A stretch of 64,000 nucleotides of DNA from Nemertoderma westbladi (lineage: Eukaryota > Animalia > Xenacoelomorpha): assembly GCA_032718475.1 (NCBI GenBank), contig JAUCBJ010001840.1, forward strand, positions 1-64,000. Direction: 5' to 3'. Of the stretch, positions 13,178 through 58,936 are shown piece after piece. A program made the translations under genes and the position numbers. Below the pieces are notes generated by a model. The model worked only from the letters and a program-made list of their open reading frames with translations, ran no database searches and was not told where the DNA came from. Numbering within the stretch: position 1 is the first letter of the stretch; the number at the start of each line of letters is the position of its first letter.

Positions 13178-14410
13178 TGTACGCGCTTTTGAAGACCTTT
13201 AGCAGTTTAACCTGCCAAAATTTATATGTCTTTTGGTTTATAAATAGACTTTAGAAGTTGACAAATATTTAATACCAATAAACACAACATTAGCAGAAGC
13301 CAGCCTAGTGCGCGTCCATTCACCCGCTGGATATACCCGGGAGACTGGATTCTGAGGGCTTAGATTATTATTGCAGTGTAAGCCTACTGTATTATTCGAT
13401 TGATCGTTAATAAATAATTTCTGACTAATATTATTCACTTTCGGGAAATATTAACAGTTCCTTTTGGACGTGGCGCTCTATCTAGGTAAACAGAGATATG
13501 ACTTATACTAATCACAACGGTAAGTCGGTAAGGCTTATGATTCACGTATGAGACGCATTCTTTAGGAAATGCTTAGTTATCAGTCACAATCAGGCACACT
13601 ACCGGTAACACACAATACTGCTCACTAATTTGCCGACCGTCAATGAATTTTATCATATATAAAGAGAGCAGCAACGGACTCATGTAGTGCTTATCAAATA
13701 GCATTAAATTCACTACAAACCACAACAATATAAGTCGCAATCGCTATATATAACCCGTCTCTCTAACCTGTAGTGTATCAAGAAAATTGGGAAATTTGGG
13801 TTCTTTATAAATGTTCTCCAAATAATAATATTCAACCAAAACACAACAGTAAATAGCATTAAGACGGTAGGTTAAGATGGTAACACTGTTTGACTGGACC
13901 GATAACAGTTATACGCTCTATAATCTTAAGCCTACTAATGTTTCTTCTAAAGTCTGAAACGAATTGACTCTAGAGCCGGTGTTCCTGGCCTAGATAGAAG
14001 GAACACAACAGTAACACAAAAACAGTAAGACTGAACACTCCTAGTATCATCGGCCGAATATCTCCACATCGACAGAAAAAATCGCTCTGATTGGCTTAAG
14101 CTAAACAAAGAACCATGTGTCCAATGGCCGTTTCCATGTCAGCAACCAGCTGTTAGATGTCGCAATCTGAATCATCAAGGCTAAGCTGTGTAAGGGTATT
14201 TGGTGCATTGCGGGTTTTTTGCCTTACCATGTCCTCCAAAGCACGTATATAGAAGAATGACTTTTATGTCCGTTAAAACACCTATAACGGTACCTTGCGG
14301 GCGAGAGGAACATATATATAGTTAGAGAGCCTTTTAGAGTATTCCAGCGCCTGGGGGGAAACTGGATTGCGAAGCAAAAGGGCCAGTTATATCCCACAGA
14401 AGCTTTTACA
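13178..14410 (-). repeat. BEL-1 3' LTR (1233 bp)
   Basis: Direct repeat of 24026-25243; plus strand TGTACGCG...CTTTTACA. Confidence 0.95.
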
Positions 14411-14418
14411 CCGCTCCC
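14411..14418 (-). promoter_or_regulatory. Polypurine tract GGGAGCGG of BEL-1
   Basis: Abuts the 3' LTR; identical 8-mer abuts the BEL-2 3' LTR (47428-47435). Confidence 0.8.
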
Positions 14419-14488: not shown

Positions 14489-15490
14489 TTAGTCTTTCTT
14501 GCGCGGACGGCGTTTACTCAGTTTTTTAAAGCTAGCCAGAGTCTTTTTCTCTTTGGGGCGAGCCACTTTACAAGGAGGGCTATAACTCCTGGGTGAAGGG
14601 TGCAATATGATTGCATCAGAGGGTGTAGGATTATGGTCGGTGTATCCGCCAGTCGAAGTACCGGGTTGATTGACATCAACGTCGGGGGAGAGGGGTCTAA
14701 CGGCTTTGAGAGCTCGTTTTAAGACAGCCGCTCTTACGGGTCCTTTACGAGTGGTCTGAACGAGAGCCGTGGGTGGACCATAGGCAGTTAGAAACCTCCG
14801 GGGTTTAATGGTTCTTTCCAACTCGCGTTCGCGGGCTCGGTATTCGTAAGGCCGTCGATATACTTCCTGTAACTCGGGGTGTGAGTTAACAAATAAGTCT
14901 CCATAGTCCGGATCCTGACGGATATAATTGATTAAGTTATAGGAATGAAGGTCGCTAGGATTAACACTCCTGAGAAATTTGCGTACGAATTTGGTTGAAA
15001 TACATTCTCCGACGCGCTTCAGTAGTTCGTAACTCGATATGCGTGATTTCTGTTCGACAGAAGCGAATAGATAAGGATGGAACGCATAAATTCCTTCGTA
15101 AGCGCGTCCAGGATAATAGCGATGGCGCGAATCACAATGTAAATCAGCGTTCGCTTCCCAAGCTCTGATGCAACGTAGTGTGATCATTTCATCTACGCTT
15201 TCCAAATCGCGATTAAAAGGGCAATCGAAACTGGCGTGTCCCTTTAGTTGACAATGGTGACATTGAGTCATAAATTGAGGGCAAACCGCAAAAATGTGCA
15301 AGTTATTGAGTCTGCAATACGCGCAATAAATTTCCATCGCCGGTTGTTCGTGGAAATAGGAACAGCGGACGCGTTTGTGTCCATGGGCGTAACATGGTCT
15401 CTCGATGCGCATAACCGACAACGTTGCCGAGAAACATAGTTGGCATGGCGATAATTGTACGCAGTGAGACACTGTGGACCTTGATACCAT
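14489..15490 (-). CDS. BEL-1 accessory ORF-B, 333 aa, Cys/His-rich with CCHC zinc knuckle and basic C-terminus
   Basis: ATG-initiated 1-kb ORF in element sense orientation; CHHCQLKGHASFDC (CX2CX4HX4C); further C/H clusters CYAHGHKRVRC and CAYCRLNNLHIFAVC; ends KKLSKRRPRKKD. Confidence 0.75.
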   Translation of the reverse strand: MVSRSTVSHCVQLSPCQLCFSATLSVMRIERPCYAHGHKRVRCSYFHEQPAMEIYCAYCRLNNLHIFAVCPQFMTQCHHCQLKGHASFDCPFNRDLESVDEMITLRCIRAWEANADLHCDSRHRYYPGRAYEGIYAFHPYLFASVEQKSRISSYELLKRVGECISTKFVRKFLRSVNPSDLHSYNLINYIRQDPDYGDLFVNSHPELQEVYRRPYEYRARERELERTIKPRRFLTAYGPPTALVQTTRKGPVRAAVLKRALKAVRPLSPDVDVNQPGTSTGGYTDHNPTPSDAIILHPSPRSYSPPCKVARPKEKKTLASFKKLSKRRPRKKD

Positions 15491-15540
15491 TCTAGGATGT
15501 AATCGTTGTCGCTGTTCCGGGCGCGATAGGCTGAATCTCC

Positions 15541-15939
15541 TCAGATTCTAGGCATATTGGTTCGTCTTCCCAGTCTGTTACGAATAGAATTTTCGTGATC
15601 TATTCTCGGTTTATCGTTACGACTCCGCTGGGTATGATATTTAAATAGAACCATTTCCCTTTCGGTGTCTACATCGTCCGTATCATGTAAATCGATAGGA
15701 TGGCCGGTAGTTAGGAAGTCCATATACGCACTATTACGATGCGTATAGCGAGCGGTGAATTTTCGATAGTCCAATTCACGCGTAAGTTGCTCTTGGGACA
15801 TCGGCGGTTCGATATAACGACCATCGTCCTCCGTAATGGTTGGATCGGTTTCACCGCGTATCAAGCTATCCACAAATGCTTGTAAAGGTAGAGTATATCG
15901 CTCCCTGATACCAAGATCATCTTCTATCAACTCCGTCAT
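15541..15939 (-). CDS. BEL-1 accessory ORF-A, 132 aa, unknown function
   Basis: ATG-initiated, acidic soluble composition, same strand and 50 nt upstream of ORF-B. Confidence 0.55.
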   Translation of the reverse strand: MTELIEDDLGIRERYTLPLQAFVDSLIRGETDPTITEDDGRYIEPPMSQEQLTRELDYRKFTARYTHRNSAYMDFLTTGHPIDLHDTDDVDTEREMVLFKYHTQRSRNDKPRIDHENSIRNRLGRRTNMPRI

Positions 15940-17569: not shown

Positions 17570-20500
17570 TTACGTTATGGAGTCCCTAGATATTTGTCGG
17601 ATTAGGGAAGTGGTCGTAGGAAGAGTATCTTGCCTTCCATAGTTTCCGGACAGTTTTCGGTCTCTTTCCAGTAAACATAAACGACCAGCTGGGCGATTGA
17701 GTTGTTGTGTTACTTTCTCCGCTCCCTTGGCCTGTCTAACCTCCGCCGTGGTAAGATGAGGAGGCCATTCTTCTTCTTCTTTACTTAAGAAGTCGGATCC
17801 ACCTAACCAGCCTGGAGTATCTATCAGTTCTTGAGGAGTTGCTCCTCTGGAAGCGATGTCGGCTGGATTAATCGTCCCAAGGCAATGTCTCCATTGATCT
17901 ACATTGGAGTTAATATCGTCATTATCTGAGGAGTATGGTGTTCCCTCAGCTAGTTCGTCCACCTCACTGCTCTCCATTTCCCATTCCTTTACTTGGTATA
18001 CCTGTTGTTGAGGTAATCTCTCTTTGAGAGTTCTACGGGAAGGGCCAGTGAAGTACCAACCTACTCTAGTTCTTACCGCATAGGTTTGTAGTGGCTGTGG
18101 TTGAGCAGGCCGTTTCTCCAATGTCTCGAGCGCCTCATGCGCGTTTTGGCCGATGAGTATTTGCACTCCAGGATAATCTGTCTGGAATCGAGGTATCTTA
18201 AGATGTTGGATGCTCTCATCCTCGTCCCAATTATAAAGGTCTGCTTGAGTAGTAGCGAAGTTCTTTATAGCCACCATTTTTACCGACCTTATACCTTGTG
18301 CTCCTAATTTATCCTGGGGGGTGGACAACACACCTACATAGTAATCTGCCGTTAGGGTAGATTTCCAAACCTGCATAATTCCTGACATATTCAATTTAGT
18401 CCGGAATTTGGGTTGTCCAGCAAAGATATCTTCGGCTAGTTCTTGATCGATGAATGTTCCTGTGCTGCCGGAGTCAAGGAGGGCGTTCACTATGTAACTT
18501 TTGTTAGGACCGTGAACTCTTACCTGCACTACAGGAAATTCTCTGATTCCTACGTTGGAAGTTGGAGCTTTCCAAGATGGTTGTCTGTCAAAGGTAGTTG
18601 GGGGGAACTCATTGTCGGTGTCCTTTTCATGCGTAAGTGCTCGATACACTGCGGTATTTATTAGGTAACAGGATTCGTTGGCGTCGGAGAATTCGTCCGT
18701 ATAGAATCCTTCCATCTCAGATTCTTGATCAGTGTCATTTACATCACTGAATTGGACATGTAGTTCGGGCTCACTTACCTGACTCGGGTTGTCTCGTTCG
18801 AACTCACTGTGTAACAAGATGTGATGTTTCGCGCCACACTTTGCACACTTTACGTCGGAGTAACAGGTTCGCCGTTGGTGTCCTGATCTGAGGCAATTAT
18901 AGCATAACCGCTTATTCCACAGGACTGTACGTCTGTCTACAAGGGATTTCTTTAGAAATTCAGCACACGCACTCAAACGGTGGGGCCCGTCGCACAGCGC
19001 ACATTTTGGTTTGATGTTACTCACCTTACCTTGGGTAACGTTATGCACTCTCGTTCTTTCTTCGGGCTTTCTTCCGTGAATTCTCTTAGGAGACGTAGGA
19101 GGAGTTGTTGTTACCTGTTCTCTCCTGTCACTGGTTCGAGACTTGTATTTACTTACGTCTTTATAGGTCTTGTTGTCATAGTAAGATTTTGCTGTGTCTT
19201 TCCCGCTGTCCTCTTCTTGAGAAGCTTGGCTTTCGCCGTCGTCAGTATAACACACTGGTATTATCCTTCTCCTAGAAACGGGTTTCTCACTTACCTTATT
19301 TTCCGATGTTTTCTCTCTGGACTGCTTTATGAGTTGTAATTTTACTTCACTATCTAAGAAGGACATGAGATCAGCCATGGTAGGGCTTCGTCGTTGCTGC
19401 TCATTCATATACAACACTTTCTTGTCCCAACGTGTACATACTCCACCCTTAGGTAAAGTAGAGACTACGGCTCCAATAACCATGGAACTCTGATATTCAT
19501 GAGACTTACCTAACCAGTCCAATTGTCTACAGATCTCCTGAATCTCATCGGAAAACTCTATAATCCCGCTACTAAGGAAGTTTCTGGGGGCTACTAATTT
19601 TGCATACAAATACTTAGCTATGTTATCCTTGTTACCATACCTGATGTTTAATGTATCCCAAACTTGTCTTAATCCCTCTGGATGTCCAATAAACTTTAAC
19701 GCCATTAACTTGGGAGGTCCTTCCAAGCACTTGATGAGGAACCTAAGTTTCTCTCCGTTAGATAGTACAGAGTTCTGTATGCTATCTTTGTAATATTCAT
19801 TGAAAGGTAACCATTTCATCTCATCTCCATTGAATTTGACGATCTCTCCCACTTTGACCGCTTGGCGGGCTTCTGTTCTAGCCATCTGACGCGTAAAGCT
19901 TTCTTGGGCCATCGTGTTATTTAATATCGAATTATCGGTATATAAATTTCTCGGATCATTATCAGGTCTATAGGGAATATCATTAACAACAGGTTTATAA
20001 TCACCCTTAATAGGGTTTGCTATAGGAGTTTCTACTTCACTAGCAGTATAGATGCGTGTAGGCTCCACACCTTGCGCATGTAATACTTCAGACCTAACAG
20101 GTTGACACAATGTTACAGGGGGTATTGGTATCGCTTTTTGTATATTGACTAATTTGTCGCGTTCTAGAGCGATACTTTGCTGCACTTCTTGCAATTCGGC
20201 CCTACCTTCCCTTACTGTTCCCTTAAGTTGGTGGACAGTCTCCTGCATCTGTCCGAGCAGGAGATTCATCCCCCGCCGTCCCTCCTCTACCCACTCGACC
20301 GCCGAAGCGGGAGTCGCCAACATTGTAGCGGGCTGACGCGGGACGACGGGAGACAAATCTTTGATTTCTCTCTCAGCTTCCAGGACAGGGATATTCTCAT
20401 GGACTGTTCTACCGGGTACAGGCAGTGTAGTACTGTGTAGAGGGAATTTAGAGTTAAGCTCTGGAAGTACAGGGGTCTCTAGCACAGGAGTGGCTTTGGG

Positions 20501-21763
20501 AACGACAGGCCTAATTATTTCAGGCTCATCAACTATGGTAGGGAGTCTTTTGACCTTAATAATTTGGTCTGTGGGTTCTGTACTACCTAAGTCTGTGCTA
20601 GCTAGTTGTCTTCTGACAGCTGGGGGCAAATCAGGCAGTTTATGACGGTGAGATGTTTTTCTACGCCTGCTTAGACGAGATCTATTTCCTCCGCCTTCCG
20701 GATCGGTGGTCTCGCCTTCTTCCGATGATGTGTATTCTTGGCGTTTGGGAGTAGATCGACTCATCATCTGCATTTGACTAGCAGTTAACTGTTTATTTAT
20801 GTTGTCTTGCGTCTCTTGCAGATTTTCCAACTCCAGTTGGGTAGTCAGCTCAGACGCTCTCCGTTCTGCTTCTGCCACTGCCTTTGCCGCCTTTCTTTCC
20901 GCTTCTGCTTCTGCCGCCGCTGCCTTTCTTTCTGCTTCTGCTTCTGCCGCCGCTGCCTTTCTTTCTGCTTCTGCTTCTGCCGCCGCTGCCTTTCTTTCTG
21001 CTTCTGCTTCTGCCGCCGCTGCCTTTCTTTCTACTTCTGCTTCTGCCATGGTCGCCGCCTTTTGTTCCTCTATCCGTCTTTTCTTTACTTCTTCTTCCTG
21101 GACTCTAGCGAGGCGAAGTTTTTCATCAAATTTAGCTTGGTTTGCAGCTAACATTTCCGCATCGATTGCGTCCAACACAAGCTTGGTTCCTTCACTATTA
21201 GGGCGAAGTCCAGACAGTCGTCTCCTCAACTCTTCGTCTCCTATGAATCGCTGATAGTCTGACAGATAGATGTCAATGGCGTCTCTAGTTCGCGGCTTCT
21301 CTGCTGCTGTTAATTCGCTTTCCACTTCGCTTTCCACCTCGCTTTCCACTTGAGAAGAAGTGGCATCAGTTGATTCTTCATAGGTTGGCCGCTCATCATA
21401 AACCGTATCCACCATCTTCGCTCCGCGTTCGGGCGTCCGCTCAACAGTATCTGAACTACTGGAGCTATCGGGCCGCTGAGAACTAGGTTCTTGGCTAGGA
21501 GGTTGCTGCTGTTTTATAGCTTCTTCTTGATCCCGCTTGACTTGGGCCCGAGTACCTATGGCAGACCAACGGCGCTTCACTAACTTCGCAAATTGCGAAA
21601 TCTTTTCTACCAACCTAGGTTCTGACACAACCACTGCAGGGGTTGCCCTTCTTACAGTATGAGGGGTTTCAGACCTCGGTCTGGGATTCTCTACACTTTG
21701 ATCTGAGAAACAGGCTGTTGTTTCTAGGAGACTATCTGACAGAGTTTGCCTGGTGTCAGCCAT
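17570..21763 (-). CDS. gag-pro: BEL-1 Gag-protease polyprotein with in-frame pol remnants (no RT, RNase H core or integrase core)
   Basis: KFNGDEMKWLPF capsid motif; knuckles CALCDGPHRLSAC, CYNCLRSGHQRRTC, CAKCGAKHHILLH; protease ALLDSGS; AVRTRVGW; tail QWRHCLGTINPADIASRG and RPAGRLCLLE. Confidence 0.92.
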   Translation of the reverse strand: MADTRQTLSDSLLETTACFSDQSVENPRPRSETPHTVRRATPAVVVSEPRLVEKISQFAKLVKRRWSAIGTRAQVKRDQEEAIKQQQPPSQEPSSQRPDSSSSSDTVERTPERGAKMVDTVYDERPTYEESTDATSSQVESEVESEVESELTAAEKPRTRDAIDIYLSDYQRFIGDEELRRRLSGLRPNSEGTKLVLDAIDAEMLAANQAKFDEKLRLARVQEEEVKKRRIEEQKAATMAEAEVERKAAAAEAEAERKAAAAEAEAERKAAAAEAEAERKAAAAEAEAERKAAKAVAEAERRASELTTQLELENLQETQDNINKQLTASQMQMMSRSTPKRQEYTSSEEGETTDPEGGGNRSRLSRRRKTSHRHKLPDLPPAVRRQLASTDLGSTEPTDQIIKVKRLPTIVDEPEIIRPVVPKATPVLETPVLPELNSKFPLHSTTLPVPGRTVHENIPVLEAEREIKDLSPVVPRQPATMLATPASAVEWVEEGRRGMNLLLGQMQETVHQLKGTVREGRAELQEVQQSIALERDKLVNIQKAIPIPPVTLCQPVRSEVLHAQGVEPTRIYTASEVETPIANPIKGDYKPVVNDIPYRPDNDPRNLYTDNSILNNTMAQESFTRQMARTEARQAVKVGEIVKFNGDEMKWLPFNEYYKDSIQNSVLSNGEKLRFLIKCLEGPPKLMALKFIGHPEGLRQVWDTLNIRYGNKDNIAKYLYAKLVAPRNFLSSGIIEFSDEIQEICRQLDWLGKSHEYQSSMVIGAVVSTLPKGGVCTRWDKKVLYMNEQQRRSPTMADLMSFLDSEVKLQLIKQSREKTSENKVSEKPVSRRRIIPVCYTDDGESQASQEEDSGKDTAKSYYDNKTYKDVSKYKSRTSDRREQVTTTPPTSPKRIHGRKPEERTRVHNVTQGKVSNIKPKCALCDGPHRLSACAEFLKKSLVDRRTVLWNKRLCYNCLRSGHQRRTCYSDVKCAKCGAKHHILLHSEFERDNPSQVSEPELHVQFSDVNDTDQESEMEGFYTDEFSDANESCYLINTAVYRALTHEKDTDNEFPPTTFDRQPSWKAPTSNVGIREFPVVQVRVHGPNKSYIVNALLDSGSTGTFIDQELAEDIFAGQPKFRTKLNMSGIMQVWKSTLTADYYVGVLSTPQDKLGAQGIRSVKMVAIKNFATTQADLYNWDEDESIQHLKIPRFQTDYPGVQILIGQNAHEALETLEKRPAQPQPLQTYAVRTRVGWYFTGPSRRTLKERLPQQQVYQVKEWEMESSEVDELAEGTPYSSDNDDINSNVDQWRHCLGTINPADIASRGATPQELIDTPGWLGGSDFLSKEEEEWPPHLTTAEVRQAKGAEKVTQQLNRPAGRLCLLERDRKLSGNYGRQDTLPTTTSLIRQISRDSIT
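20870..21047 (-). repeat. 33-bp coding tandem repeat (AEAERKAAAAE)~5 in Gag
   Basis: Visible in both DNA and translation. Confidence 0.9.
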
Positions 21764-23134: not shown

Positions 23135-23640
23135 CCAAACGCTGGCAGACTACCACCAAGCCTAAATAAACTACCGTACGTGTAGATTCCAAAATGGTTA
23201 GTTAGTATGCGTTCTAACACGGTAGTACGACTTATTCTTTAAGAGGGGATTGACCTTACAGCTATGGCTGCCCCAACTTACTAACTGGCACTTTATCAGA
23301 CAAACTCACCACACGCAGCAATCTCTTCAGACCTAATAATAGCTAGACAACAATCCAGCCTACAAAATATCTGAGTAATAACTATTACGGTACCTGAACA
23401 GACTACACAAACAAACACAGGCCAAAACGTTGGCAGAATACTGTCAAGCCTAAATAAACTACAGTATGTGCAGATTCCAAAATGGTTAGTTAGTATGCGT
23501 TCTAACACGGTAGTACGACTTATTCTTTAAGAGGGGATTGACCTTACAGCTATGGCTGCCCCAACTTACTAACTGGCACTCTATCGGACAAACTCTACAC
23601 ACGCCGCAATCTCTCCAAACCCAACAACAATCCGACAACA
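23135..23640. repeat. ~288-bp tandem duplication in BEL-1 5' leader
   Basis: CCTAAATAAAC..GATTCCAAAATGG..CTAACTGGCACT at 23161 and 23449. Confidence 0.85.
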
Positions 23641-23834
23641 GTACGGCCTACAATTATCTGAACAATCTGAGCAGACTTACACGTCTTCAGCTCAATGTTA
23701 ACTTACATGTAAATAAAACCGACAGAAATAAGTAAAATCTCAATAAAAAACCAGGGCTGCAGTCCCTGATTAAATACTAAGACCTACCGGTATACAATAA
23801 TCAAAATCGAATAATACTAATGTACTTATACTGG

Positions 23835-23965
23835 AAGTACCGGTTAGGACAGTTGGGCCTACGGACCTACAGAAGTACCGGTTCTGGCAGTTGGACCTAC
23901 GGACCTACAGCAGTACCGGTTCTGGCAGTTGGGCCTACTCACCTACAGAAGTACTGGTTCAGGTT
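23835..23965. repeat. ~38-bp tandem repeat in BEL-1 leader
   Basis: AGTACCGGTT..CAGTTGG.CCTAC..ACCTACAG about 3.5 times. Confidence 0.8.
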
Positions 23966-24014
23966 TACCGGTCGACCGGTACTTTCAACTTTATTGCTTA
24001 CTGCAATAAAGACA

Positions 24015-24025
24015 ATAACTGTTAT
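24015..24025 (-). promoter_or_regulatory. Candidate self-priming PBS of BEL-1 (sense ATAACAGTTAT)
   Basis: Directly follows the 5' LTR; no TGG; exact complement within LTR at 24734-24744 (and 13902-13912). Confidence 0.7.
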
Positions 24026-25243
24026 TGTACGCGCTTTTGAAGACCTTTAGCAGTTTAACCTGCCAAAATTTATATGTCTTTTGGTTTATAAATAGACTTT
24101 AGAAGTTGACAAATATTTAATACCAATAAACACAACATTAGCAGAAGCCAGCCTAGTGCGCGTCCATTCACCCGCTGGATATACCCGGGAGACTGGATTC
24201 TGAGGGCTTAGATTATTATTGCAGTGTAAGCTTACTGTATTATTCGATTGATCGTTAATAAATAATTTCTGACTAATATTATTCACTTTCGGGAAATATT
24301 AACAGTTCCTTTAGGACGTGGCGCTCTATCTAGGTAAACAGAGATATGACTTATACTAATCACAACGGTAAGTCGGTAAGGCTTATGATTCACGTATGAG
24401 GCGCATTCTTTAGGAAATGCTTAGTTATCAGTCACAATCAGGCACACTACCGGTAACACACAATACTGCTCACTAATTTGCCGACCGTCAATGAATTTTA
24501 TCATATATAAAGAGAACAGCAACGGACTCATGTAGTGCTTATCAAATAGCATTAAACTCACTACAAACCACGATAATATAAGTCGCAATCGCTATATATA
24601 ACCCGTCTCTCTAACCTGTAGTGTATCAAGAAAATTGGGAAATTTGGGTTCTTTATATATGTTCTCCAAATAATATTCAACCAAAACACAACAGTAAACA
24701 TTAAGACGGTATGTTAAGTTATGATATGAACTGATAACAGTTATACGCTCTATAATCTTAAGCCTACTAATGTTTCTTCTAAAGTCTGAAACGAATTGAC
24801 TCTAGAGCCGGTGTTCCTGGCCTAGATAGAAACAACACAACAGTATCACAAAAAACAGTAAGACTGAACACTCCTAGTATGATCGGCCGAATATCTCCAC
24901 ATCGACAGAAAAAATCGCTCTGATTGGCTTAAGCTAAACAAAGAACCATGCGTCCAATGGCTGTTTCCATGCCAGCAACCAGCTGCTAGATGTCGTAATC
25001 TGAATCATCAAGGCCAAGCCGTGTAAAGGTATTTGGTGCATTGCGGGTTTTTTGCCTTACCATGTCCGCCAAAGCACGTATATAGAAGAATGACTTTTAT
25101 GTCCGTTAAAACACCTATAACGGTACCTTGCGGGCGAGGGGAATATATATACAGTTAGAGAGCCTTTTAGAGTATTCCAGCGCCTGGGGGGAAACTGGAT
25201 TGCGAAGCAAAGGGGCCAGTTATATCCCACAGAAGCTTTTACA
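24026..25243 (-). repeat. BEL-1 5' LTR (1218 bp)
   Basis: Direct repeat of 13178-14410 with scattered SNPs and one diverged block (~24695-24732). Confidence 0.95.
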
Positions 25244-25470
25244 GGGGGGGGGGGGACTGGATGCAATAAAAATGCATCCCTATCCAGGGGAAATGCTGCT
25301 TACGAGCAAAAATCAAACTGTAACCTGTTCTATTGTGTTTAGTTTATTGTTTTGGTTAAAATAACGTCCCACTGTAACCTGCTCCTTTCCCTAAATTGAG
25401 AATTTCACATTGAGGCGGGATATTAATTCGCCAAGGCGGGCTTTGCATCCAGTCCCCCCCCCCCTGTCTC
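25244..25470. mobile_element. MITE, second copy of the 890-1146 family, left tip missing
   Basis: G-run+ACTGGATGCAA / TTGCATCCAGT+C-run+TGTCTC; internal similarity to 990-1140. Confidence 0.8.
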
Positions 25471-34052: not shown

Positions 34053-35219
34053 TGTAAAAGCTTTTGCGTAATTAGCCGGTTATTTTCCCGTAAAGTACTC
34101 TGTAGTTGGTTTACCAGGCATAAAAAGGCCGTGTTCTTACTGTACTGGTGTTTTAGAGGACATAAAAGTCATTTCTTCTGTATGTGTACTTTAAAGGACA
34201 TAATCCGTAATTTCGTGACGCAATAGCTGGATACTCTTGAAAACAGTGGCGCTACCATGACGACGGCTAGCAGCTGATATTGCCACGTCGACAGTTCTTT
34301 GTTTCTTTGTTCTCTCGTTGTTCGGTTGACCAATCAGAGCGTTTGTTGTCTCTGTGTTGGAGGTGTATACAGAGGCTCAGTAGTTCAGTGTTATGTTTTG
34401 CCCAGAGCCTAAGAACCGGCTTTTGGCACCTCCGTGTTTTCAGTTTTTATCTTACACTAGTAGGCTTAATTATAAGGACATATATCCGTTATCTCAACAT
34501 AACATAACATACCATACCTAATCAAACAACCTGTGCATACTTTTATATTGTTATACTGCTATTTACTGTCAGTTCTTCATAATATGGTTGATGAATTATT
34601 ATATTTGGAATAACGATAAATAACCCCGAAAACCCAATATTCTTGATATACCGAAGGTAAGAGAGAAAGGTTACATATAACGATTGTGACTTATGTTAAA
34701 GTGGTTTGAAGTGAATCTAATGTTATTTGATAGACCCTACATGATTCGGTCTGTGTTCCTTTTATATGTGACTAAAATCAGTGAAGATCGGCAGATTAGT
34801 GTGCAGTATTGTGCAGCATTGTGTATTAGTGAGACTGATAACGAAGCATTTCCTAAAGAATGCGCCATATATGTGAATTATAACTAAGCCATATCGTTGT
34901 GAGTAGTTTAAGTCATAACTCTGTTTATATAGGTAGAGCGCCACGTCCTAAAGGAACTGTTAATATTTCCCGAAGATGAATAATATTGTCAGAAATTATA
35001 TAATACTGTCAGTCGAATAATACATTAGGCCTACATAGCAATACGATTAAGCCGTCGAACCCAATCTCCCGGGTATATCCAGCGGGTGAATGATCGCGCA
35101 CAGATTGGTTTCGACTAGTGTAGTGAATCAAATACTTGTCATAGGCTAAAAGCGAATTATTATCTAGAAGACATCCTAATTTGGCGGGTTAAACTGCCAA
35201 AGGTCTGAAAGCGCGAACA
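34053..35219 (+). mobile_element. Solo LTR of a BEL-1-related subfamily
   Basis: TGTAAAAGCTT...GCGCGAACA; ATTAT TSD (34048-34052, 35220-35224); blocks match the reverse complement of the BEL-1 LTR (e.g. TAGAGCGCCACGTCCTAAAGGAACTGTTAATATTTCCCGAA; TCTCCCGGGTATATCCAGCGGGTGAATG). Confidence 0.9.
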
Positions 35220-35540
35220 ATTATTATTTATTAACTATTTATATAGCGCTCTTCTGAGCCAGATTCAGAGCGCTTAAAAAATAAATATAAAAATTATAAT
35301 CATGAAAATTAAAAAAACACAATCAGTTGAGATATAAAATAATTTAAAAGTGTCAACATTATAAGTCACCAGTAAAGTAAAATAATTGATGGTCCTACAA
35401 GTTTATTCACCATATTCTGCTCTGAATAGGAACGTCTTTAGCCTATTTATTTTTAAACGTGTCCAATGAGGGTGGCTCTCTAACTGACTGGGGGATAGAG
35501 TTCCAAACAGTAGGTGCCGCAACGGAAAATGCTCGTCTAC
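35220..35540 (-). pseudogene. L2 LINE 3' end
   Basis: Minus strand RRAFSVAAPTVWNSIPQSVREPPSLDTFK..LKTFLFR; L2-type terminal stem AAGCGCTC..GAGCGCTATATAAA and (AAT)n tail. Confidence 0.75.
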
Positions 35541-46825: not shown

Positions 46826-47427
46826 TATCACGTTGGCTAAAAGAATCCTTTGTGAAGATTCTATAGCCGGGAAGGAAATAAGGAGGGCCGGTTGCGGTAC
46901 TCCAAGTATTTCTTCCCCTGGGCCACGTGTAAGCCTTGACTGGGCTGATAATTCTAGAGCTACTTTTATAAGGATGTCCAAACCTCCCAAACAGACTCCA
47001 GGCTCTCCCTGCACCTTAATATAAATACCCAAACTGCCAAACCCAATAGAGTTACCTGATTGCCAAAGTTACCTTGCTCGCTTGACCGCGAGTGAAGCCC
47101 CTCCCCACGGCGGAATAGAGTGACGGAAATATAAGTTGTAACCAACGATATAATAGAGAACGGACGACGGACCCGGTGACCTGGTGGATTGTTCTAGGCG
47201 CTGGTGAGTAATGTTGTTTGTTATTGTAGGATTGGGAACAAATCCCATAAGAACTTTATGAATTCTCCCAGTCAGTAGTTAGCAGTACTGCAGTATGCCT
47301 ACATCGGTAGGCTACTCTCTGTGTTGCAGGAGTAGTGCAGTCGTGTCCTGTCACTTCTGCTGTCTGCTATCTGATGGATACCGGAAGTGTCATTTTGTCA
47401 TTTCACAGGCCACCAGGTGACGTCATA
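46826..47427 (-). repeat. BEL-2 3' LTR (TA..TA termini)
   Basis: Plus strand TATCACG...CGTCATA; direct repeat of 58335-58936. Confidence 0.95.
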
Positions 47428-48855: not shown

Positions 48856-50586
48856 TTACGGTTTATGTTTGTCAACAGATTTCCGTTGGGTATTTGTTGT
48901 AATATTACTAAGGATCCACGGCTGATTATGTTGAAGAGGCTGAAATTGACCATATATACCTGTCTTCTCTGAGTCTTGTTCAAGGAGGCATAATTTCTGT
49001 ATCAGTCTTTCGAGAATACTCCCATTCTGCGTCTTCAATTTAGCGCTTCTGACTAAGCCATCGCCACTGTAGTTAGGTTCTAAGACAGTAGCTGTAAGCC
49101 AATCCCGCCGTGGCCGTACAGGGTCATGAATTAAGACGATATCACCAATATTTAGATTTGGTCGTTGGCAAAACCACTTCGATCTTAGGCGTTGAGAAGG
49201 TAAATAGTCAATCAACCAATTGTTCCAGAATCGTTGAGTCAGGAGTTGAAGAACTTTCCAGGTGCGTCGGGAATGAAGATCATTATCCTCCATTTCGGAT
49301 ATTGGTATCGTAATGGCTGGTTTAGAGAAGAGGAAATGTGCTGGAGTGAGAGCTTCAGCTGATTCAGAAGATTGCGAAATACGTGTTAATGGTCGGTTGT
49401 TCAAAACTAATTCGATCTGAGCCAACAATGTGCGCAACGCCTCATCATCCAAATACGTGTAAGTCTCATCCTCGGGCAACAGTTTGTAGAAAGCTTGTTT
49501 GACACTTTGTACCAGCCTTTCATAAGTTCCCCCATACCAAGGAGCGTGGGGTGGAGTAAAGTACCAGTCTATGAGGTTTATTTGATGATTATCAAGAAGC
49601 TCGTGTAGCGATTGCGTATTCCACTCATTGATATTATTACGAAGCTCTTTCTCGGCTGCTACGAAGTTTCCTCCATTATCAGAGGTGATATGATGTGGTT
49701 GTCCGCGCCGTGCGATCAATCTGGACAATGCGGACAAAAACGAACCCATGTTAGCTTGATACAAAACGTCCAGATGGATCGCCCTTGTAGTCATACATAC
49801 CGCCAATAAGCCCCATCGTTTGACAGTAGTTCTGGCGCGCTTAACTAATATCGGGCCAAACATATCCACTCCACAATTGGTAAATGCTGGCTCATATGCC
49901 GCCATCCGAACGTTGGGTAGATCTCCCATCTGTTGCTTCATCAGTGGTGAGTTGTATCTCCGGCAGTGAAGACAATTGCGCATAACATTCCGTAGATACT
50001 TCCAGGGTGAAACTAGAAAATAGTGTTGTCTCAAATGACTCAAGATATGGTCTCTTCCTGAGTGATTAAGTTCAAGGTGAGTGTCATGAAATAATTGTTC
50101 CAAGAGGAGTGGTTCGCGCAACATGATAGGATGTATAGTGTCATAGGACACTGGAGCCATTGTTAGGCGTGTTTGAACTCGAATAATCCCATTTGACATG
50201 ATTGTGGCAACATGCTGAGGGGGGATAGGGTTATTATGTTGATGTTTCAAAAAAAGTTCTGGATCTGCTATTCTTTGTGAGAGGCGAAGTCTCATTTGTA
50301 AACTGGTCCTTAGTTCTTCTAGTGTTAATGGACCAAAAAATCTAAGAGGTTTCTCGGTCGTATTGGGATTCTTTTGTCGCCAACAATACCAATGTGCCAT
50401 GCGGCGAATGTAGCAAATATCCCGAATCGAGGCACGAAGACTTTGCTGACTGCTCAGAAGTCTTTTCAACCAAGGATGCAATCCTTTGTCTAAGTTTGGA
50501 AATTTAATCTCTTTACTTGAACCTCTGGGAATTGGGGTAGGATCATCTTCAACATTTATTATTGTATTGGTTTCTCCTGAAATCAA
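48856..50586 (-). CDS. pol: BEL-2 integrase region (separated from upstream ORF by a 1-nt shift)
   Basis: HHCC (H..H...CLHC), GVDMFGP, SDNGGNF, GGTYERLVQSVK, C-terminal IQKLCLLE. Confidence 0.92.
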   Translation of the reverse strand: MISGETNTIINVEDDPTPIPRGSSKEIKFPNLDKGLHPWLKRLLSSQQSLRASIRDICYIRRMAHWYCWRQKNPNTTEKPLRFFGPLTLEELRTSLQMRLRLSQRIADPELFLKHQHNNPIPPQHVATIMSNGIIRVQTRLTMAPVSYDTIHPIMLREPLLLEQLFHDTHLELNHSGRDHILSHLRQHYFLVSPWKYLRNVMRNCLHCRRYNSPLMKQQMGDLPNVRMAAYEPAFTNCGVDMFGPILVKRARTTVKRWGLLAVCMTTRAIHLDVLYQANMGSFLSALSRLIARRGQPHHITSDNGGNFVAAEKELRNNINEWNTQSLHELLDNHQINLIDWYFTPPHAPWYGGTYERLVQSVKQAFYKLLPEDETYTYLDDEALRTLLAQIELVLNNRPLTRISQSSESAEALTPAHFLFSKPAITIPISEMEDNDLHSRRTWKVLQLLTQRFWNNWLIDYLPSQRLRSKWFCQRPNLNIGDIVLIHDPVRPRRDWLTATVLEPNYSGDGLVRSAKLKTQNGSILERLIQKLCLLEQDSEKTGIYGQFQPLQHNQPWILSNITTNTQRKSVDKHKP

Positions 50587-50587
50587 C

Positions 50588-53500
50588 CTAGATTTGGGGG
50601 GGGTATACTCTATTGAGAACTATCTCCGCTCCCTTGGGGAGATTTAGATCTCGCAGTACATGAGGCCACTCATCTTCTGTCTCCCACAAGAAATCTGGAC
50701 CTTTCCACCATATGGAAGAATTGACTAATTCTTCTGCTGTTGAGCCACAACAGGCCAGATCAGCTGGATTAATGGTACCAGCTATATGACGCCATTGATA
50801 TAGGAGTGATTGTTTTAATATTCGAGTCACCCGGTTTGTTATAAACACAGAGAGTTTATGTTTACGGTTATGCAGGTATTGTAATACTATGGTAGCATCA
50901 GTCCAATAATATTGTTCTACCTTAAGAGTAAGTTCAGCTGTGATGATCTCAGCAAGTTCAGTTCCCAGCACAGCAGCTTGTAATTCTGCCTTAGGGGTTG
51001 ATAGTTCTTGTTTAGGCATAATACGAGATTTTGAAGCAACAAAGGTTACTGAAAATATACCCTTCAACTCTCGTCTAAAATAGGCCGTTGCACCCATCCC
51101 ATTATCACAAGCGTCAACAAAGACATGAAGTTGAAGTTGTTCGGTTGTTTGCAAGTGAGGAAAGTATGTTCTGGGAATAGTTAATTGTTCTATATTTTTA
51201 AGGTCCTTTTCCCACTTACTCCAGGCCTCAAACAGAAGTTGGGGAATAGTATCATCCCAATCTAAATCTAAAAGCCAAGTTTTCTTAAGCAAGAACTTAG
51301 CCCTCATAATTACTGGCGCAACATATCCAAATGGGTCGAAGACCTTGTGCATTTTCGAAAGGCATTGGCGTCGTGTTTTTGCTGGCACATTATCGATAAA
51401 GGCAACTGTGAAGTAGAACTCATCTTCTTGCATTCGCCAACGTAGTCCCAATGTTTTCATTACTGGGAGCTGCTCTACATCTAAGTCTAGGGTAGGGGAG
51501 GCCCGTTCTTCTGGTGGAAATGTCTGTAGTAGTTCCTTGCTGTTGCTAGCGAATTTCACCAGTCGAAAGCCACCCCGGAGCAGGCAATCTTGAACACCAT
51601 GAGCAATATCAATTAAGTTTCCACTGATTGGATGTGACTTAAGAACATCATCCATATATAAACTATTCTTTATTGTTTCAATTATAACCTTTTTGAAATC
51701 ATTGGCATTGTCATCAGCTGTTGCATACACAATACTCTCAGCATTGCTAGGTGAGGATATTACTCCAAAGGGTTGGCACTTCATCCAATATTGGCTTGGC
51801 TCACCTTCGAGCTCAGTTGTCGGCCACCAATAATATCGGAGGCTGTCTTGGTCCACTGGGAGGGCACGTACCTGTAGAAACATTGCTTCTATATCTGCTA
51901 CGAAAGCTACATTAAACTCACGAAATCTAATAAGAATTCCTACCAAAGATTGTAATAAGTTTGGTCCAGGAAGTATCTCTGTATTGAGTGATTTACCTTT
52001 ATATGTGGCATGACAGTCGAAAACAACTCGTACAGTGTTGGGTTTGTTTTCATGGGTTACAAAATGATGCGGCATAAAATATGACCTGGGACCAAATTGT
52101 TGTTGGTCAGATGGAACCAATTCTGCGCAATCAATTTTGAGGTATTTATCCATTTGATGTTGATACATATCTAAATATTTAGGGTTCTTCTTCAGCCTTT
52201 TTCTCATGTTCAGAGCTCTATTATATGCTAGGCTAGAATTGTTAATAAGCTGTGGAGGATCATCCCGCCACAGCAGGCCAGTCTGATAATGTCCATCAGG
52301 CAGAAGTTTGCGCGTCCGATGCTGGATCTCCACAGCATGGAGGTCGTCTGGAGACATTGCTAATTTATCCTCATTCACGTTAGTGCTGTCATTCTCAAGC
52401 CATCGTTGCATGGCCAAATCAAGAGTCATATTATCCAAGGCTGAACATTCTTCATTATTATGATAATCGTCGTTGGTTCTAGATGATTCACTATGAGTCA
52501 CCAAGTGCATTAAGGTATCGTAAGTATCCTGAGTGGGCAGTTCAGTCATGTCTCTACCTAAGGCTGCCAATTCCTGTTCTATGAATGTATCTTGTAGTCG
52601 ACATACTGATTCATGAGTGAGTATTTCAATGTAATTTATACTCTCAGATTCTCTCTCTTTTAATGTTCTCTCTGATGGTCCCGAACAATACCATCCAAGA
52701 GGTGTTCGTGCCGCAAATGGCGAACTGTATTTGGATGACCCCACTCCCAAGAAAGCTGCCGGGATTGTTTCTAAAACGCGAAAGGCTTCAGGGCAGTTCT
52801 GCCCTATGAGCATGACAACCTTAGGATCTTCAGCCGTTGCTAGAGGAATCTGGTATTGTTTGGAAAAATCATCACTCAACCAGTCATGGGGAGTCCCAAG
52901 TGCGTTTTTTAAACCATTCATACGTATAATTTTGATGTTCTCTGCCATTTCCCCTTCCACGTCATCCCTGGCTGGACTAAGTTTACCCTTTGCCACTACC
53001 GTAGGCATCTCTTGGTACCAGGCTACGGCCGTTAAGTGCAGGTTAGTTTCTTTGGTTACTCCAAACAACCGGTCGAAAATATCCCCATCTAGAAAGGTAG
53101 TCGAGCTACCCGTATCTACAAGAGCATTAACAATTGTTGAACCCTTATCGCCATTTAGTCTCAAGGTCAAAACCGGAAATTCACGCACTGGACCACCTCT
53201 ACGATTGAGTCTACAGGAAATTATGGCAGCATTATCGATAAAATTTGACTCATGTTCTGCAAACTCAGTAACTCCATATTCATCACCAGCAGCATCTGAA
53301 TCTGTCTCAGATTCTACTATTCTCATTGCAGCCTCTTCTCGTTTAGTTTCACGTGAGGTAAGTTCTTCTTTATGAAGGATAGTGTGGTGGGCTTCACCAC
53401 AAATTTTACAACGATTTTTATTCTTACAATGGGACCGGAGGTGGAGGCTTGATAAACAGTTGTAGCAAAGTTTTTCACGTTGACAAAAGGATCTTCTTTT

Positions 53501-56260
53501 CTCTAGATTCATCTTATTAAAGTCTTCACATTTAAACAAGTTATGGGTATCTCCACATTTAATACATTTCAACTCACCTGTCCCTCTGGATACAGTTGGT
53601 TTGGGTGGGATATTTTGTTTAGAAGGTCGAGTGATAGCATTAAGAGCCTTGGATTGTTGATGTCTTCCTTTTGCTGGCTTATGCAATTTCGCCACTATCC
53701 GATTTAAGAACTCATCATCATCACTTGAGTCATCTGTTCTTACTGCATTTACCCTCGAAATTCTTTTAATATCTTTATTAAGAATTGTGGTATTATTGGG
53801 CTTTGCAACAGGCATTAAAACCAGAATATCCACCTCTTCTTCCAAAAACTGGACAAAATGTTCGGCTTTGGCAATATTAGGATCATTCAATCGACGCTGG
53901 TGACGTAATTGTGCCTTTACCCATCGTCGACGAGTGGGTTCTGTTAACTTAGCTGCGAGATCGTTCAATATCTTAGTGTTATCTAGCTGAGGTCCAGCCC
54001 CGAGTTGATGCAGCTGTTGGAAAGTCCATTTTACCTCATCTGCGAATTCAATTACCTTTTCAGGTTGGCTTACAGGTTCCATTTTCAAAAGTTTCTCCAA
54101 TAATGATGCAATTATGGATTGCTCTCGACCATAACGTTTGTTCAAACCTTCCCAGGCCTTTATGAATCCATCCTGAAGACCAACACAACTTTCTACCATC
54201 CTTAAAGGTGCATCTTCCACCATAGCCATCAAATAGTTCAAGTTTTCTTGATCCGTCAAGTGGAATCCCAAAACTGCTGTCTCAAAGTGATGTCTGAAGG
54301 TTACCCAATCATCTGCAGCACCAGAAAATTTCTTTAACTTTATTTTTGGAAGATTTCTCTCAGCCGTAAGTCTATTCATAGCATGTGCTATGGTTGGTTC
54401 CATTGATGAAGTATTAATTCTACTGGACTGAAGCATCCCTATGTCCCTCGATACCAAAGGAGGTGGACACCCTTCACCCAGTGGAGCAGAAGTTGAATTT
54501 GATCTATCAATATTATCCTGGTATGTATTATTTACTAGTTGAATTCTAGAAAGGTTATTGTGAGTTTGACCTCCTGGAGCATTCATACTACCATTGGAAG
54601 TTAGAGTTTCATGAGGGGGCAGTTGGGCCGTATCTGCATTGAGCGCAACTTCTGCTTGGATCCTATCCACATGATCAAAGCAACTCTTCCGAAGGTCCTT
54701 TAACCGTATGTCCATGTTCTTGGCTAGCTGACTTATGTGCTGTCCCCAGTGCCCATGGGGTGGTTGTAAACCCTGTATTTCATTAATCTTCTGGGATAAA
54801 CCCTGCAGACTCTGCTCCATTTCATATCTCCAATTCGAATATTGGTCTATTGGTGACCATCCCATTTTATTATCGTATATAGCATGTGTGTGTTTAGGAA
54901 TGGTTCCGCCTATACTTGTAGAGTATTGCATGGATATTGGAGGTGGTACAGGTATTGATTGTATCCTTGGATGTAAGATAACCTTTGGTTCTCTCGAGGT
55001 TTGATACCTCGGTGAAGATAATTGTGGTCTATTTCCACTTCCAGGATTCTTCTGGAAATAGTGGGAGGATGGTGCCATCTCAGTGTCCTGCCGCTCATAT
55101 CTAATCTCTGAGGTTACATGTCTTGGCTCAATTCTACCAGGTTTAGGAGTTCCTTTTGCCTCTTTCAAAGCCTCTGATTCTAGGAGAATTCTATGTTTTT
55201 CCGGTGGAATTTCGTAAGCTCGCCTCTTGTTAGATACTGGTGGGCAAAACTCAACATGACGTGACAAGTCGGGTTGGGTGGTTACAACGTTGACCTTCAT
55301 TCCCTTTCTATCTTCTAGGTTTTTGTCTATGAAGTGATCCTCTTGATTTTCTTCCATAACCAACCGATTCAAATCAGGTACCAGGGGTTGCTGTAAATAT
55401 CGCTGCAAAGTCTCGGAACTGGGATTAATTGGAGATGAGCTGATAGGTCCTCTTGCAGCTGGTAGCAAAGACTGCCCTTCTTGTCCAATTGAAACAAAAG
55501 GGGCATCATCCAGAATGGTGTCATTTACTTCCTGCAGCTGGGACTGTAGACGGATAAATTTCTGTTGTTGATCTAGGGCATCATTCTGCAATTGAAACTC
55601 CATATCTTTCAGTTTCTTCTGTTCCGCTAACTCCTCAAATATATTATCTTGATGATGTTGTTCCGCAGCAACTCTTTCTTCAACCTCTCGTTTCTTAGAT
55701 TGGGCTATCCTTTCTTCCACAGCTTGTTGGTTGGCTCTCTTCTGGGAGCTCAGTATTATGTTATCTCTCAGTTGTTGTGCTTTTGTTTGCTTTCGTTGAG
55801 TGATCAATTCTTCCTGTTGTTGATATTCCTTAAGGCGACGATCCCTATGTTTCTTTGCTATTTCAAAGCGTTGCATCCGGTCCTCCCTTTTTGAAGAGGC
55901 AACACTGCTTTCACTTAATGTGCAGGTCGGGGATGAAAATAGAGGCATCATTACTCCTGCTGCTCCACACCATTTTTGGTATAGACTAGATATTTTTTGG
56001 TATCTGCCATCGTGCTCACGTGCGCGCATCTGTAATCTATGATCAAGAGTGTCCAATTGTCGGGCCTTGGCAACGAGACGTATCCACTCCAAATGAGACA
56101 TAAGGCGTTGTCGTTTTGCTTCTAATTCAACATTCCATGTGTATACTTCGTCTGGACGGTGAGCCTGGAAATACTCGTGGGTGAGTTTTGCTTCCAATCG
56201 TTTAGATACCGTGTCGACGCTGATAAATATCCGGAGCTTATGTGGTCTAAACGTCCACAA
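50588..56260 (-). CDS. gag-pol: BEL-2 Gag-protease-RT-RNase H polyprotein
   Basis: KFSGAADDWVTF; three knuckles; ALVDTGS; ADIEAMFLQV; YMDD; HVFVDAC; PKAELQAA; WTDATIVL; NPADL. Confidence 0.95.
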   Translation of the reverse strand: MWTFRPHKLRIFISVDTVSKRLEAKLTHEYFQAHRPDEVYTWNVELEAKRQRLMSHLEWIRLVAKARQLDTLDHRLQMRAREHDGRYQKISSLYQKWCGAAGVMMPLFSSPTCTLSESSVASSKREDRMQRFEIAKKHRDRRLKEYQQQEELITQRKQTKAQQLRDNIILSSQKRANQQAVEERIAQSKKREVEERVAAEQHHQDNIFEELAEQKKLKDMEFQLQNDALDQQQKFIRLQSQLQEVNDTILDDAPFVSIGQEGQSLLPAARGPISSSPINPSSETLQRYLQQPLVPDLNRLVMEENQEDHFIDKNLEDRKGMKVNVVTTQPDLSRHVEFCPPVSNKRRAYEIPPEKHRILLESEALKEAKGTPKPGRIEPRHVTSEIRYERQDTEMAPSSHYFQKNPGSGNRPQLSSPRYQTSREPKVILHPRIQSIPVPPPISMQYSTSIGGTIPKHTHAIYDNKMGWSPIDQYSNWRYEMEQSLQGLSQKINEIQGLQPPHGHWGQHISQLAKNMDIRLKDLRKSCFDHVDRIQAEVALNADTAQLPPHETLTSNGSMNAPGGQTHNNLSRIQLVNNTYQDNIDRSNSTSAPLGEGCPPPLVSRDIGMLQSSRINTSSMEPTIAHAMNRLTAERNLPKIKLKKFSGAADDWVTFRHHFETAVLGFHLTDQENLNYLMAMVEDAPLRMVESCVGLQDGFIKAWEGLNKRYGREQSIIASLLEKLLKMEPVSQPEKVIEFADEVKWTFQQLHQLGAGPQLDNTKILNDLAAKLTEPTRRRWVKAQLRHQRRLNDPNIAKAEHFVQFLEEEVDILVLMPVAKPNNTTILNKDIKRISRVNAVRTDDSSDDDEFLNRIVAKLHKPAKGRHQQSKALNAITRPSKQNIPPKPTVSRGTGELKCIKCGDTHNLFKCEDFNKMNLEKRRSFCQREKLCYNCLSSLHLRSHCKNKNRCKICGEAHHTILHKEELTSRETKREEAAMRIVESETDSDAAGDEYGVTEFAEHESNFIDNAAIISCRLNRRGGPVREFPVLTLRLNGDKGSTIVNALVDTGSSTTFLDGDIFDRLFGVTKETNLHLTAVAWYQEMPTVVAKGKLSPARDDVEGEMAENIKIIRMNGLKNALGTPHDWLSDDFSKQYQIPLATAEDPKVVMLIGQNCPEAFRVLETIPAAFLGVGSSKYSSPFAARTPLGWYCSGPSERTLKERESESINYIEILTHESVCRLQDTFIEQELAALGRDMTELPTQDTYDTLMHLVTHSESSRTNDDYHNNEECSALDNMTLDLAMQRWLENDSTNVNEDKLAMSPDDLHAVEIQHRTRKLLPDGHYQTGLLWRDDPPQLINNSSLAYNRALNMRKRLKKNPKYLDMYQHQMDKYLKIDCAELVPSDQQQFGPRSYFMPHHFVTHENKPNTVRVVFDCHATYKGKSLNTEILPGPNLLQSLVGILIRFREFNVAFVADIEAMFLQVRALPVDQDSLRYYWWPTTELEGEPSQYWMKCQPFGVISSPSNAESIVYATADDNANDFKKVIIETIKNSLYMDDVLKSHPISGNLIDIAHGVQDCLLRGGFRLVKFASNSKELLQTFPPEERASPTLDLDVEQLPVMKTLGLRWRMQEDEFYFTVAFIDNVPAKTRRQCLSKMHKVFDPFGYVAPVIMRAKFLLKKTWLLDLDWDDTIPQLLFEAWSKWEKDLKNIEQLTIPRTYFPHLQTTEQLQLHVFVDACDNGMGATAYFRRELKGIFSVTFVASKSRIMPKQELSTPKAELQAAVLGTELAEIITAELTLKVEQYYWTDATIVLQYLHNRKHKLSVFITNRVTRILKQSLLYQWRHIAGTINPADLACCGSTAEELVNSSIWWKGPDFLWETEDEWPHVLRDLNLPKGAEIVLNRVYPPQI

Positions 56261-56487
56261 GAGACAGTGGGGTCAATACCCTCCAATTTCAACTGCATAC
56301 AAGCTGATAAGTAGGAGTCTGTGGCTCTCTCACTAAGAGGTCTCGTTGTTACAGCTAATAGCTGGTGTTCTTCTGATTTGGTTTCATCACTTTCTTGCTG
56401 TGGGGGAACTACTGTTAAGTCAGAAGCTGATGGCGAATTAGTCGGATTTTCCCCATCTGTGGTATACTGTCCATTATCATTAGACAT
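56122..56487 (-). CDS. Probable true Gag N-terminus of BEL-2 (frameshifted) or overlapping upstream ORF
   Basis: ATG-initiated 121 aa at the end of the AT-rich leader; overlaps the long ORF, which lies in the -1 frame and lacks an early ATG. Confidence 0.55.
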   Translation of the reverse strand: MSNDNGQYTTDGENPTNSPSASDLTVVPPQQESDETKSEEHQLLAVTTRPLSERATDSYLSACMQLKLEGIDPTVSCGRLDHISSGYLSASTRYLNDWKQNSPTSISRLTVQTKYTHGMLN

Positions 56488-58323: not shown

Positions 58324-58334
58324 AAAGTTCTTAT
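58324..58334 (-). promoter_or_regulatory. Candidate self-priming PBS of BEL-2 (sense ATAAGAACTTT)
   Basis: Directly follows the 5' LTR; no TGG; exact complement within LTR at 58756-58766. Confidence 0.72.
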
Positions 58335-58936
58335 TATCACGTTGGCTAAAAGAATCCTTTGTGAAGATTCTATAGCCGGGAAGGAAATAAGGAGGGCCGG
58401 TTGCGGTACTCCAAGTATTTCTTACCCTGGGCCACGTGTAAGCCTTGACTGGGCTGATAATTCTAGAGCTCCTTTTATAAGGATGTCCAAACCTCCCAAA
58501 CAGACTCCAGGCTCTCCCTGCACCTTAATATAAATACCCAAACTGCCAAACCCAATAGAGTTACCTGATTGCCAAAGTTACCTTGCTCGCTTGACCGCGA
58601 GTGAAGCCCCTCCCCACGGCGGAATAGAGTGACGGAAATATAAGTTGTAACCCACGATATAATAGAGAACGGACGACGGACCCGGTGACCTGGTGGATTG
58701 TTCTAGGCGCTGGTGAGTAATGTTGTTTGTTATTGTAGGATTGGGAACAAATCCCATAAGAACTTTATGAATTCTCCCAGTCAGTAGTTAGCAGTACTGC
58801 AGTATGCCTACATCGGTAGGCTACTCTCTGTGTTGCAGGAGTAGTGCAGTCGTGTCCTGTCACTTCTGCTGTCTGCTATCTGATGGATACCGGAAGTGTC
58901 ATTTTGTCATTTTACAGGCCACCAGGTGACGTCATA
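58335..58936 (-). repeat. BEL-2 5' LTR
   Basis: Direct repeat of 46826-47427. Confidence 0.95.

Follow-up and report, generated by a model that had tools for sequence, protein, structure and literature searches.

A 64,000-nucleotide (nt) stretch of Nemertoderma westbladi DNA (assembly GCA_032718475.1, contig JAUCBJ010001840.1, positions 1 to 64,000; hereafter, the window) contains two retrotransposons with long terminal repeats (LTRs), BEL-1 and BEL-2, both on the minus strand. BEL-2 belongs to BEL/Pao, as it presents the order Gag, protease (PR), reverse transcriptase (RT), RNase H (RH), and integrase (IN), with BEL-type domains (DUF1759, Peptidase_A17, Integrase_H2C2, and DUF5641) between direct LTRs; PF05380 is present in all 120 of its homologues among the matches listed. 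The gag-protease region of BEL-1 is 27% identical to that of BEL-2, and neither RT nor integrase was found between the LTRs of this BEL-1 copy. In both elements, the primer-binding site (PBS) directly after the 5' LTR is complementary to an 11-nt segment of the LTR itself. The features involved are as follows.

24026..25243, minus strand: BEL-1 5' LTR, 1218 nt, with TG...CA ends
24015..24025, minus strand: BEL-1 primer-binding position, adjoining the LTR end, no TGG
24734..24744, minus strand: BEL-1 candidate self-primer, an 11-nt LTR segment complementary to the PBS, at LTR position 500
13178..14410, minus strand: BEL-1 3' LTR, with the 11-mer copy at 13912-13902 and no target-site duplication (TSD) shared with the 5' flank
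17570..21763, minus strand: BEL-1 open reading frame, gag (DUF1759) and protease followed by an RNase H tail only
58335..58936, minus strand: BEL-2 5' LTR, 602 nt, with TA...TA ends and TSD CCCTG
58324..58334, minus strand: BEL-2 primer-binding position, adjoining the LTR end, no TGG
58756..58766, minus strand: BEL-2 11-nt LTR segment complementary to its PBS, at LTR position 171, with a bulged extension upstream
46826..47427, minus strand: BEL-2 3' LTR, with 4 differences from the 5' LTR
48856..56272, minus strand: BEL-2 coding region in two reading frames, gag-PR-RT-RNase H (50588-56272) and integrase (48856-50619)

The minus strand of BEL-1 reads ATAACAGTTAT at 24025-24015, immediately after the 5' LTR end (..GTACA), and its exact reverse complement, ATAACTGTTAT, is found at 24744-24734 and 13912-13902, which confirms the pairing reported in an earlier note on this DNA. 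The BEL-2 11-mer is non-palindromic and unrelated to that of BEL-1, with the arrangement being the same. The earlier note had described the LTRs of the two families as dissimilar, and this was borne out (best blastn E value, 0.31). It had also given both duplexes as exactly 11 bp, which fails for BEL-2, where pairing continues for about 7 bp beyond a one-base bulge (p = 0.014 against other 15-mers of the same LTR); the corresponding extension in BEL-1 falls short of significance (p = 0.41). Allowing for a canonical splice junction does not better the match in either element. Chance was estimated by dinucleotide shuffles of each LTR (20,000) and by pseudo-sites across the window. An 11-nt complement at offset 0 arose in 31 of 20,000 shuffles for BEL-1 and in 4 of 20,000 for BEL-2 (a chance of 0.02 to 0.16% each), rising to 60 and 18 of 20,000, respectively, at offsets 0 to 4, and about 0.7% of the pseudo-sites had a match (134/17,936, or 0.75%, for BEL-1 and 123/18,112 for BEL-2).

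Both BEL-1 LTRs retain the 11-mer, as previously described. The accompanying claim that the sequence around it has diverged is correct for the downstream side, where 20 of the 49 differing columns of the LTR pair fall within 40 nt after the 11-mer, and incorrect for the upstream side, where 97 nt are identical in both LTRs. Enrichment of mutations after the core was considered as a general signature and rejected, as BEL-1 alone shows it (14 in 360 nt versus 181 in 3802 nt in other LTR pairs).

For BEL-1 taken alone, the match might be due to chance or reflect an AT-rich palindrome that underwent a short direct duplication. The PBS and the LTR 11-mer are also a 10/11 direct repeat, with the central base alone favoring complementarity over duplication; this explanation is likewise helped by the frequency of matching pseudo-sites and by the defective state of the copy, which has no TSD. 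It is nevertheless very unlikely given the exact register at the LTR boundary, the recurrence of the arrangement in BEL-2, where the 11-mer is not palindromic, and in 16/18 relatives, and a BEL-1 variant, abundant in one public run, that retains the PBS and differs directly after it. Because BEL-1 is near-palindromic and has neither RT nor TSD, it is weak evidence by itself, and the case for self-priming therefore rests mainly on the relatives.

These were collected with an alignment of the BEL-2 RT-RNase H region and 18 homologues, which yielded 79 metagenome-contig loci, the best 79 of at least 556 confirmed. The 5' LTR end was fixed independently by direct repeats (repeat divergence) in 10 loci (set A); for 8 circular contigs (set B), it was placed using the polypurine tract (PPT) and the inverted bases at the termini. 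Duplicates from the same family (L010, L017, L026, L036, L039, and L041) and loci whose ends were unclear (L016, L030, L031, L053, and L069) were omitted. The test required a perfect complement of at least 10 nt situated 0 to 4 nt from the LTR end, with any GT..AG segment of 30 to 500 nt being removable. Such a complement is present in 18 of 20 elements (8/10 in set A, 8/8 in set B, and both BEL-1 and BEL-2), whereas pairing each PBS with the LTRs of the other elements gave 13/380. The arrangement thus recurs in about 20 elements that differ in sequence, the PBS being different in nearly all families yet tracking its own LTR. Among related families, whose comparison the earlier note had proposed, 16 of the 18 relatives tested carry the complement. 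The wider proposal of shared self-priming in that note is partly supported: the family-specific complement and the lack of TGG speak for it, and a fixed form of 11 bp, zero spacer, and an initial ATAA is not general, since the relatives pair over 9 to 15 bp with spacers of 0 to 5 nt and 0/19 start with ATAA. Upstream of the core, a second helix reaches significance by itself in 2/21 elements, BEL-1 not being one of them (combined p = 0.004, for elements that are not independent), and short repeats after the core reach p < 0.1 in 8/21, a post hoc and weak signal.

None of the 20 elements (the 18 relatives, BEL-1, and BEL-2) has TGG within the 8 nt that follow the LTR. This sets them apart from Belpaoviridae as described by the international virus taxonomy committee (ICTV), in which an 18-nt PBS serves tRNA-Arg or tRNA-Gly and replication is presented as tRNA primed and poorly understood (PMC8742986). 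In other respects, the elements resemble that family (genus Semotivirus), with LTRs of 0.2 to 1.2 kb, the gag-PR-RT-RH-IN order, a candidate PPT, and metazoan homologues. The ICTV description speaks for an alternative in which the paired structure serves regulation or packaging and hides the site, while the true primer is a host tRNA, a tRNA fragment, or another small RNA. Copia lineages with half-tRNA primers that have no TGG (available text of PMC6317226) and a competing local pairing of the BEL-2 PBS in one fold point the same way. We consider this alternative unlikely, as the PBS varies among nearly all families together with its own LTR and lacks TGG at the LTR boundary in all 20 elements, and the pairing stops 0 to 5 nt from the LTR end, where the 3' end of a primer must be.

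The complement takes two forms. It is contiguous in 5/20 elements (BEL-1, BEL-2, L009, L040, and L068) and split in 13; before removal of a GT..AG segment was allowed, contiguous complements among the relatives were mostly short. Most of the other relatives would gain a complement only by joining the two sides of a GT-AG segment within the LTR, where splicing is predicted from the motifs. An unconstrained GT..AG search found a GTRAG donor in 9/14 split best matches, against a background of 32 among the 677 GTs of those LTRs. When L014 is included and four junctions are placed by eye, canonical donors and canonical acceptors each number 13/16, counts that are partly circular. A blind scan of the 26 loci with sufficient upstream sequence among the remaining 60 gave matches of at least 11 nt in 6/26, all split, versus 0/26 on the reverse strand; four of these belong to families already known and two to new families. 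The predicted probability of pairing has a median of 0.75 in spliced and 0.005 in unspliced RNA and is higher after splicing in 15/16 elements, which is partly so by construction. By eye and outside these counts, split complements at GTAAG donors were also seen in L031 (3467-4020, 10 nt) and L053 (1209-1640, 11 nt).

The relation between the two forms was examined on a 44-row FastTree tree that combined BEL-2 with 20 loci and with 23 homologues out of the 120, with BEL-1 (no RT) left out and no named reference elements. The three contiguous relatives occupy separate positions among the split ones: L040 groups with L042 and L058 (support, 100), and L068 groups with L054 (support, 81). BEL-2 forms a long unresolved branch. 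This scatter would be consistent with repeated intron loss.

Folding of the BEL-1 RNA predicts the PBS-LTR duplex (probability, 0.44 to 0.68) only for RNAs that begin no more than about 10 nt from the 11-mer and include 40 to 65 nt of leader, and so mildly favors a start near ~24744, the candidate transcription start site proposed in the earlier note. A CCAAT box (LTR position 317, shared with the solo LTR described below) and an initiator-like motif (position 377) lie 120 to 180 nt upstream of the 11-mer and point instead to an upstream start. In split relatives, part of the primer complement is predicted to fall in the second exon. The global folds of BEL-1 and BEL-2 give no clear flanking duplexes of the three-duplex "pretzel" kind, although no search was aimed at this structure.

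Where the minus-strand primer ends determines the right-hand end of an LTR. As the complements end 0 to 5 nt from this point and are family specific, self-priming is the most likely reading, and BEL-1 and BEL-2, which have no tRNA-type PBS, probably prime minus-strand DNA with their own RNA in the manner of Tf1. The 11-nt LTR segment would anneal to the 11 nt that adjoin the 5' LTR. Cleavage at the 3' end of this segment, for which the RNase H of the element is the likely enzyme if Tf1 is a guide, would then expose a 3'-OH for priming, from which extension would proceed through the remaining LTR, followed by strand transfer. The BEL-1 copy, lacking RT, would need this enzyme in trans. In split elements, splicing of the 5' LTR copy would remove the GT-AG segment and build the primer, and the LTR intron may persist by being recopied, after first-strand transfer, from the unspliced 3' LTR copy. 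The balance of the sequence evidence tilts toward a widespread animal BEL/Pao lineage in which host splicing of a 5' LTR intron creates a 10- to 15-nt PBS-pairing exon junction and the intron is inherited via the unspliced 3' LTR, with the window families being intron-less derivatives that have a ready-made primer.

A primer of LTR sequence might also come from the 3' LTR copy or act in trans, as a short LTR transcript or processed small RNA, with no fold-back and no cut near the RNA 5' end. Solo LTRs could produce such RNAs, and this source would also suit the position of the window segments, 421 to 708 nt from the LTR end, and the TATA-like box of BEL-2, which is 3' of its 11-mer. Cutting the 3' copy, however, would presumably destroy the template needed for strand transfer, and the 3' copy of split elements would have to stay unspliced for the intron to persist and hence would have no complement, which makes this source quite unlikely.

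Several observations weigh against self-priming by fold-back or against its splice-built form. The BEL-1 11-mer is, as had been cautioned, AT-rich and near-palindromic (-10.5 kcal/mol), and the probability of its duplex is 0 if the RNA starts at least 30 nt upstream and at most 0.68 otherwise. The sole TATA-like box of BEL-2 (LTR position 458) is downstream of its 11-mer (position 171), so that the segment would be off the RNA 5' end, and AATAAA is absent from the LTRs of both elements. BEL-1 and BEL-2 have 708 and 421 nt, respectively, between the complement and the LTR end, compared with 73 to 216 nt in 19 relatives. The LTR ends of the 8 circular-contig elements of set B were chosen after the pairing had already been seen. 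L032 pairs over 9 nt at offset 5 and L034 has one G-U pair, which puts both below the strict threshold; in L035, a sister copy of L034, the complement is perfect. The blind scan left 20/26 loci with no match, several of them LTR-less or just below the cutoff, and in a looser scan, not used as evidence, the reverse strand matched at least as often. Finally, predicted pairing stays poor (≤0.13) after splicing in 5/16 split elements.

The closest functional parallel is Tf1 of Schizosaccharomyces pombe, in which the RNA's initial 11 bases anneal to the PBS and RNase H cleaves between bases 11 and 12 (available text of PMC7175516); a pretzel structure for Tf1 and start-site control in Tf2 are treated in the accessible parts of PMC10085805 and PMC5341516, respectively. 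Like Tf1/Tf2 and the Tf1/sushi group, the window elements have no tRNA PBS, and part of their LTR is complementary to the site that follows the 5' LTR; this part measures 11 nt in Tf1 and in both window families (PMC7175516 and PMC10085805, same portions). Tf1 primes with nt 1 to 11 of its RNA, whereas in BEL-1 and BEL-2, the place of the candidate primer at the RNA 5' end is a prediction. Unlike Tf1/sushi elements, which are Ty3/gypsy chromoviruses, the window elements are BEL/Pao (DUF1759, Peptidase_A17, and DUF5641), and Pfam gave no chromodomain match in them. BEL-1 and BEL-2 would work like Tf1 in the complementarity at the LTR boundary, the one testable feature, and are not Tf1/sushi members. 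An intron-split primer is not mentioned in the consulted portions of the Tf1/sushi literature.

Self-priming has also been predicted, according to the available text of PMC6317226, for the plant lineages Tcn1 (Ty3/gypsy) and TAR/Houba/Osr-1 (Ty1/copia) from a complement of at least 10 bp located 0 to 5 bp after the 5' LTR. Essentially the same criterion describes the elements reported here, although Tcn1 and TAR/Houba/Osr-1 are plant Gypsy/Copia lineages with contiguous complements and not BEL/Pao. The main texts of the BEL/Pao surveys PMC3118150, PMC6238403, and PMC8556966 contain none of the PBS, primer, tRNA, intron, or self-priming terms looked for, and BEL is not linked to self-priming in the accessible parts of PMC3601003, PMC6934838, PMC9873768, and PMC5443660. 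Within the portions of the literature available to us, no report of a self-primed or splice-primed BEL/Pao element was found; Repbase reports, subscription papers, and supplements could hold earlier notice.

If the proposal is correct, the Tf1 mechanism reaches a third LTR superfamily, BEL elements with no recognizable PBS are accounted for, and annotators gain a rule for LTR ends. The splice-built form in the relatives is the more surprising part, more so than self-priming itself: priming would require pre-mRNA splicing that acts on one LTR copy and spares the other, and the spliceosome, rather than a tRNA, would gate the replication of split BEL/Pao elements.

The remaining features of BEL-1 and its family are as follows.

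14411..14418, minus strand: candidate PPT of BEL-1, a short purine-rich tract directly before the 3' LTR
14489..15547, minus strand: additional 352-codon frame upstream of the BEL-1 3' LTR, with a CCHC-like motif (CX2CX4HX4C)
23989..24011, minus strand: predicted 9-bp hairpin just 3' of the BEL-1 PBS, present in the minimum-free-energy fold and absent from the centroid
34053..35219, plus strand: solo LTR of a BEL-1-related family, with ATTAT flanks and a homologous motif at 34482-34492 (2/11 positions different)

The two BEL-1 LTRs are 96% identical. No TSD is found at 13178 and 25244; the 3' flank is a copy of the repeat at 31640-32607, matching up to the exact LTR end, and the 5' flank belongs to a different repeat (like 901-1146). 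The two LTRs probably derive from different insertions, or else the flank was deleted, and their 4% divergence is therefore not usable as an age. The frame at 14489-15547 has no Pfam match, and its atlas neighbors are mostly zf-CCHC proteins with scores of at most 0.85, all below 0.9 and a lead only. The leader of about 2 kb (21764-24014, minus strand) contains 38-bp and ~290-bp tandem duplications.

Contigs of four public runs compared with 23700-25300 show that BEL-1 is a variable, many-copy family. In the abundant variant mentioned above, the sequence immediately after the PBS differs, and another variant has an insertion immediately after the LTR 11-mer. None of 40 listed differences (191 more exist) falls in the PBS or the 11-mer, which is not counted as conservation. 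The family of the solo LTR is predicted to carry a PBS with changes that compensate those in the 34482-34492 motif; this partner sequence has no other occurrence within the window. Short tandem repeats start directly after the primer complement in L027, L040, L016, and L022 and at 34493-34525 of the window, a pattern that is weak overall and possibly reflects slippage at the template end.

BEL-2, with its 5-bp TSD, is inserted within a 73-bp satellite array and has a leader of about 2 kb (about 56300-58323, minus strand). Its LTR termini are TA...TA and not TG...CA, and the LTRs of L009 and L054 likewise end in TA.

A search of viral contigs found nothing, and Rfam gave a single marginal mir-16 match, rejected as unrelated, within an inverted repeat. 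Elsewhere in the window, a further decayed BEL/Pao element at ~39940-44200 (minus strand) retains RT, RH, and IN remnants and a PPT-like tract, and its 5' LTR was not found. A frame with an RVT_1 domain (28317-30434, plus strand) is probably part of a non-LTR element. The region 35540-38326 consists of long inverted repeats of 22-bp units around a frame with a helix-turn-helix domain (36866-37540) and resembles a foldback or DNA transposon.
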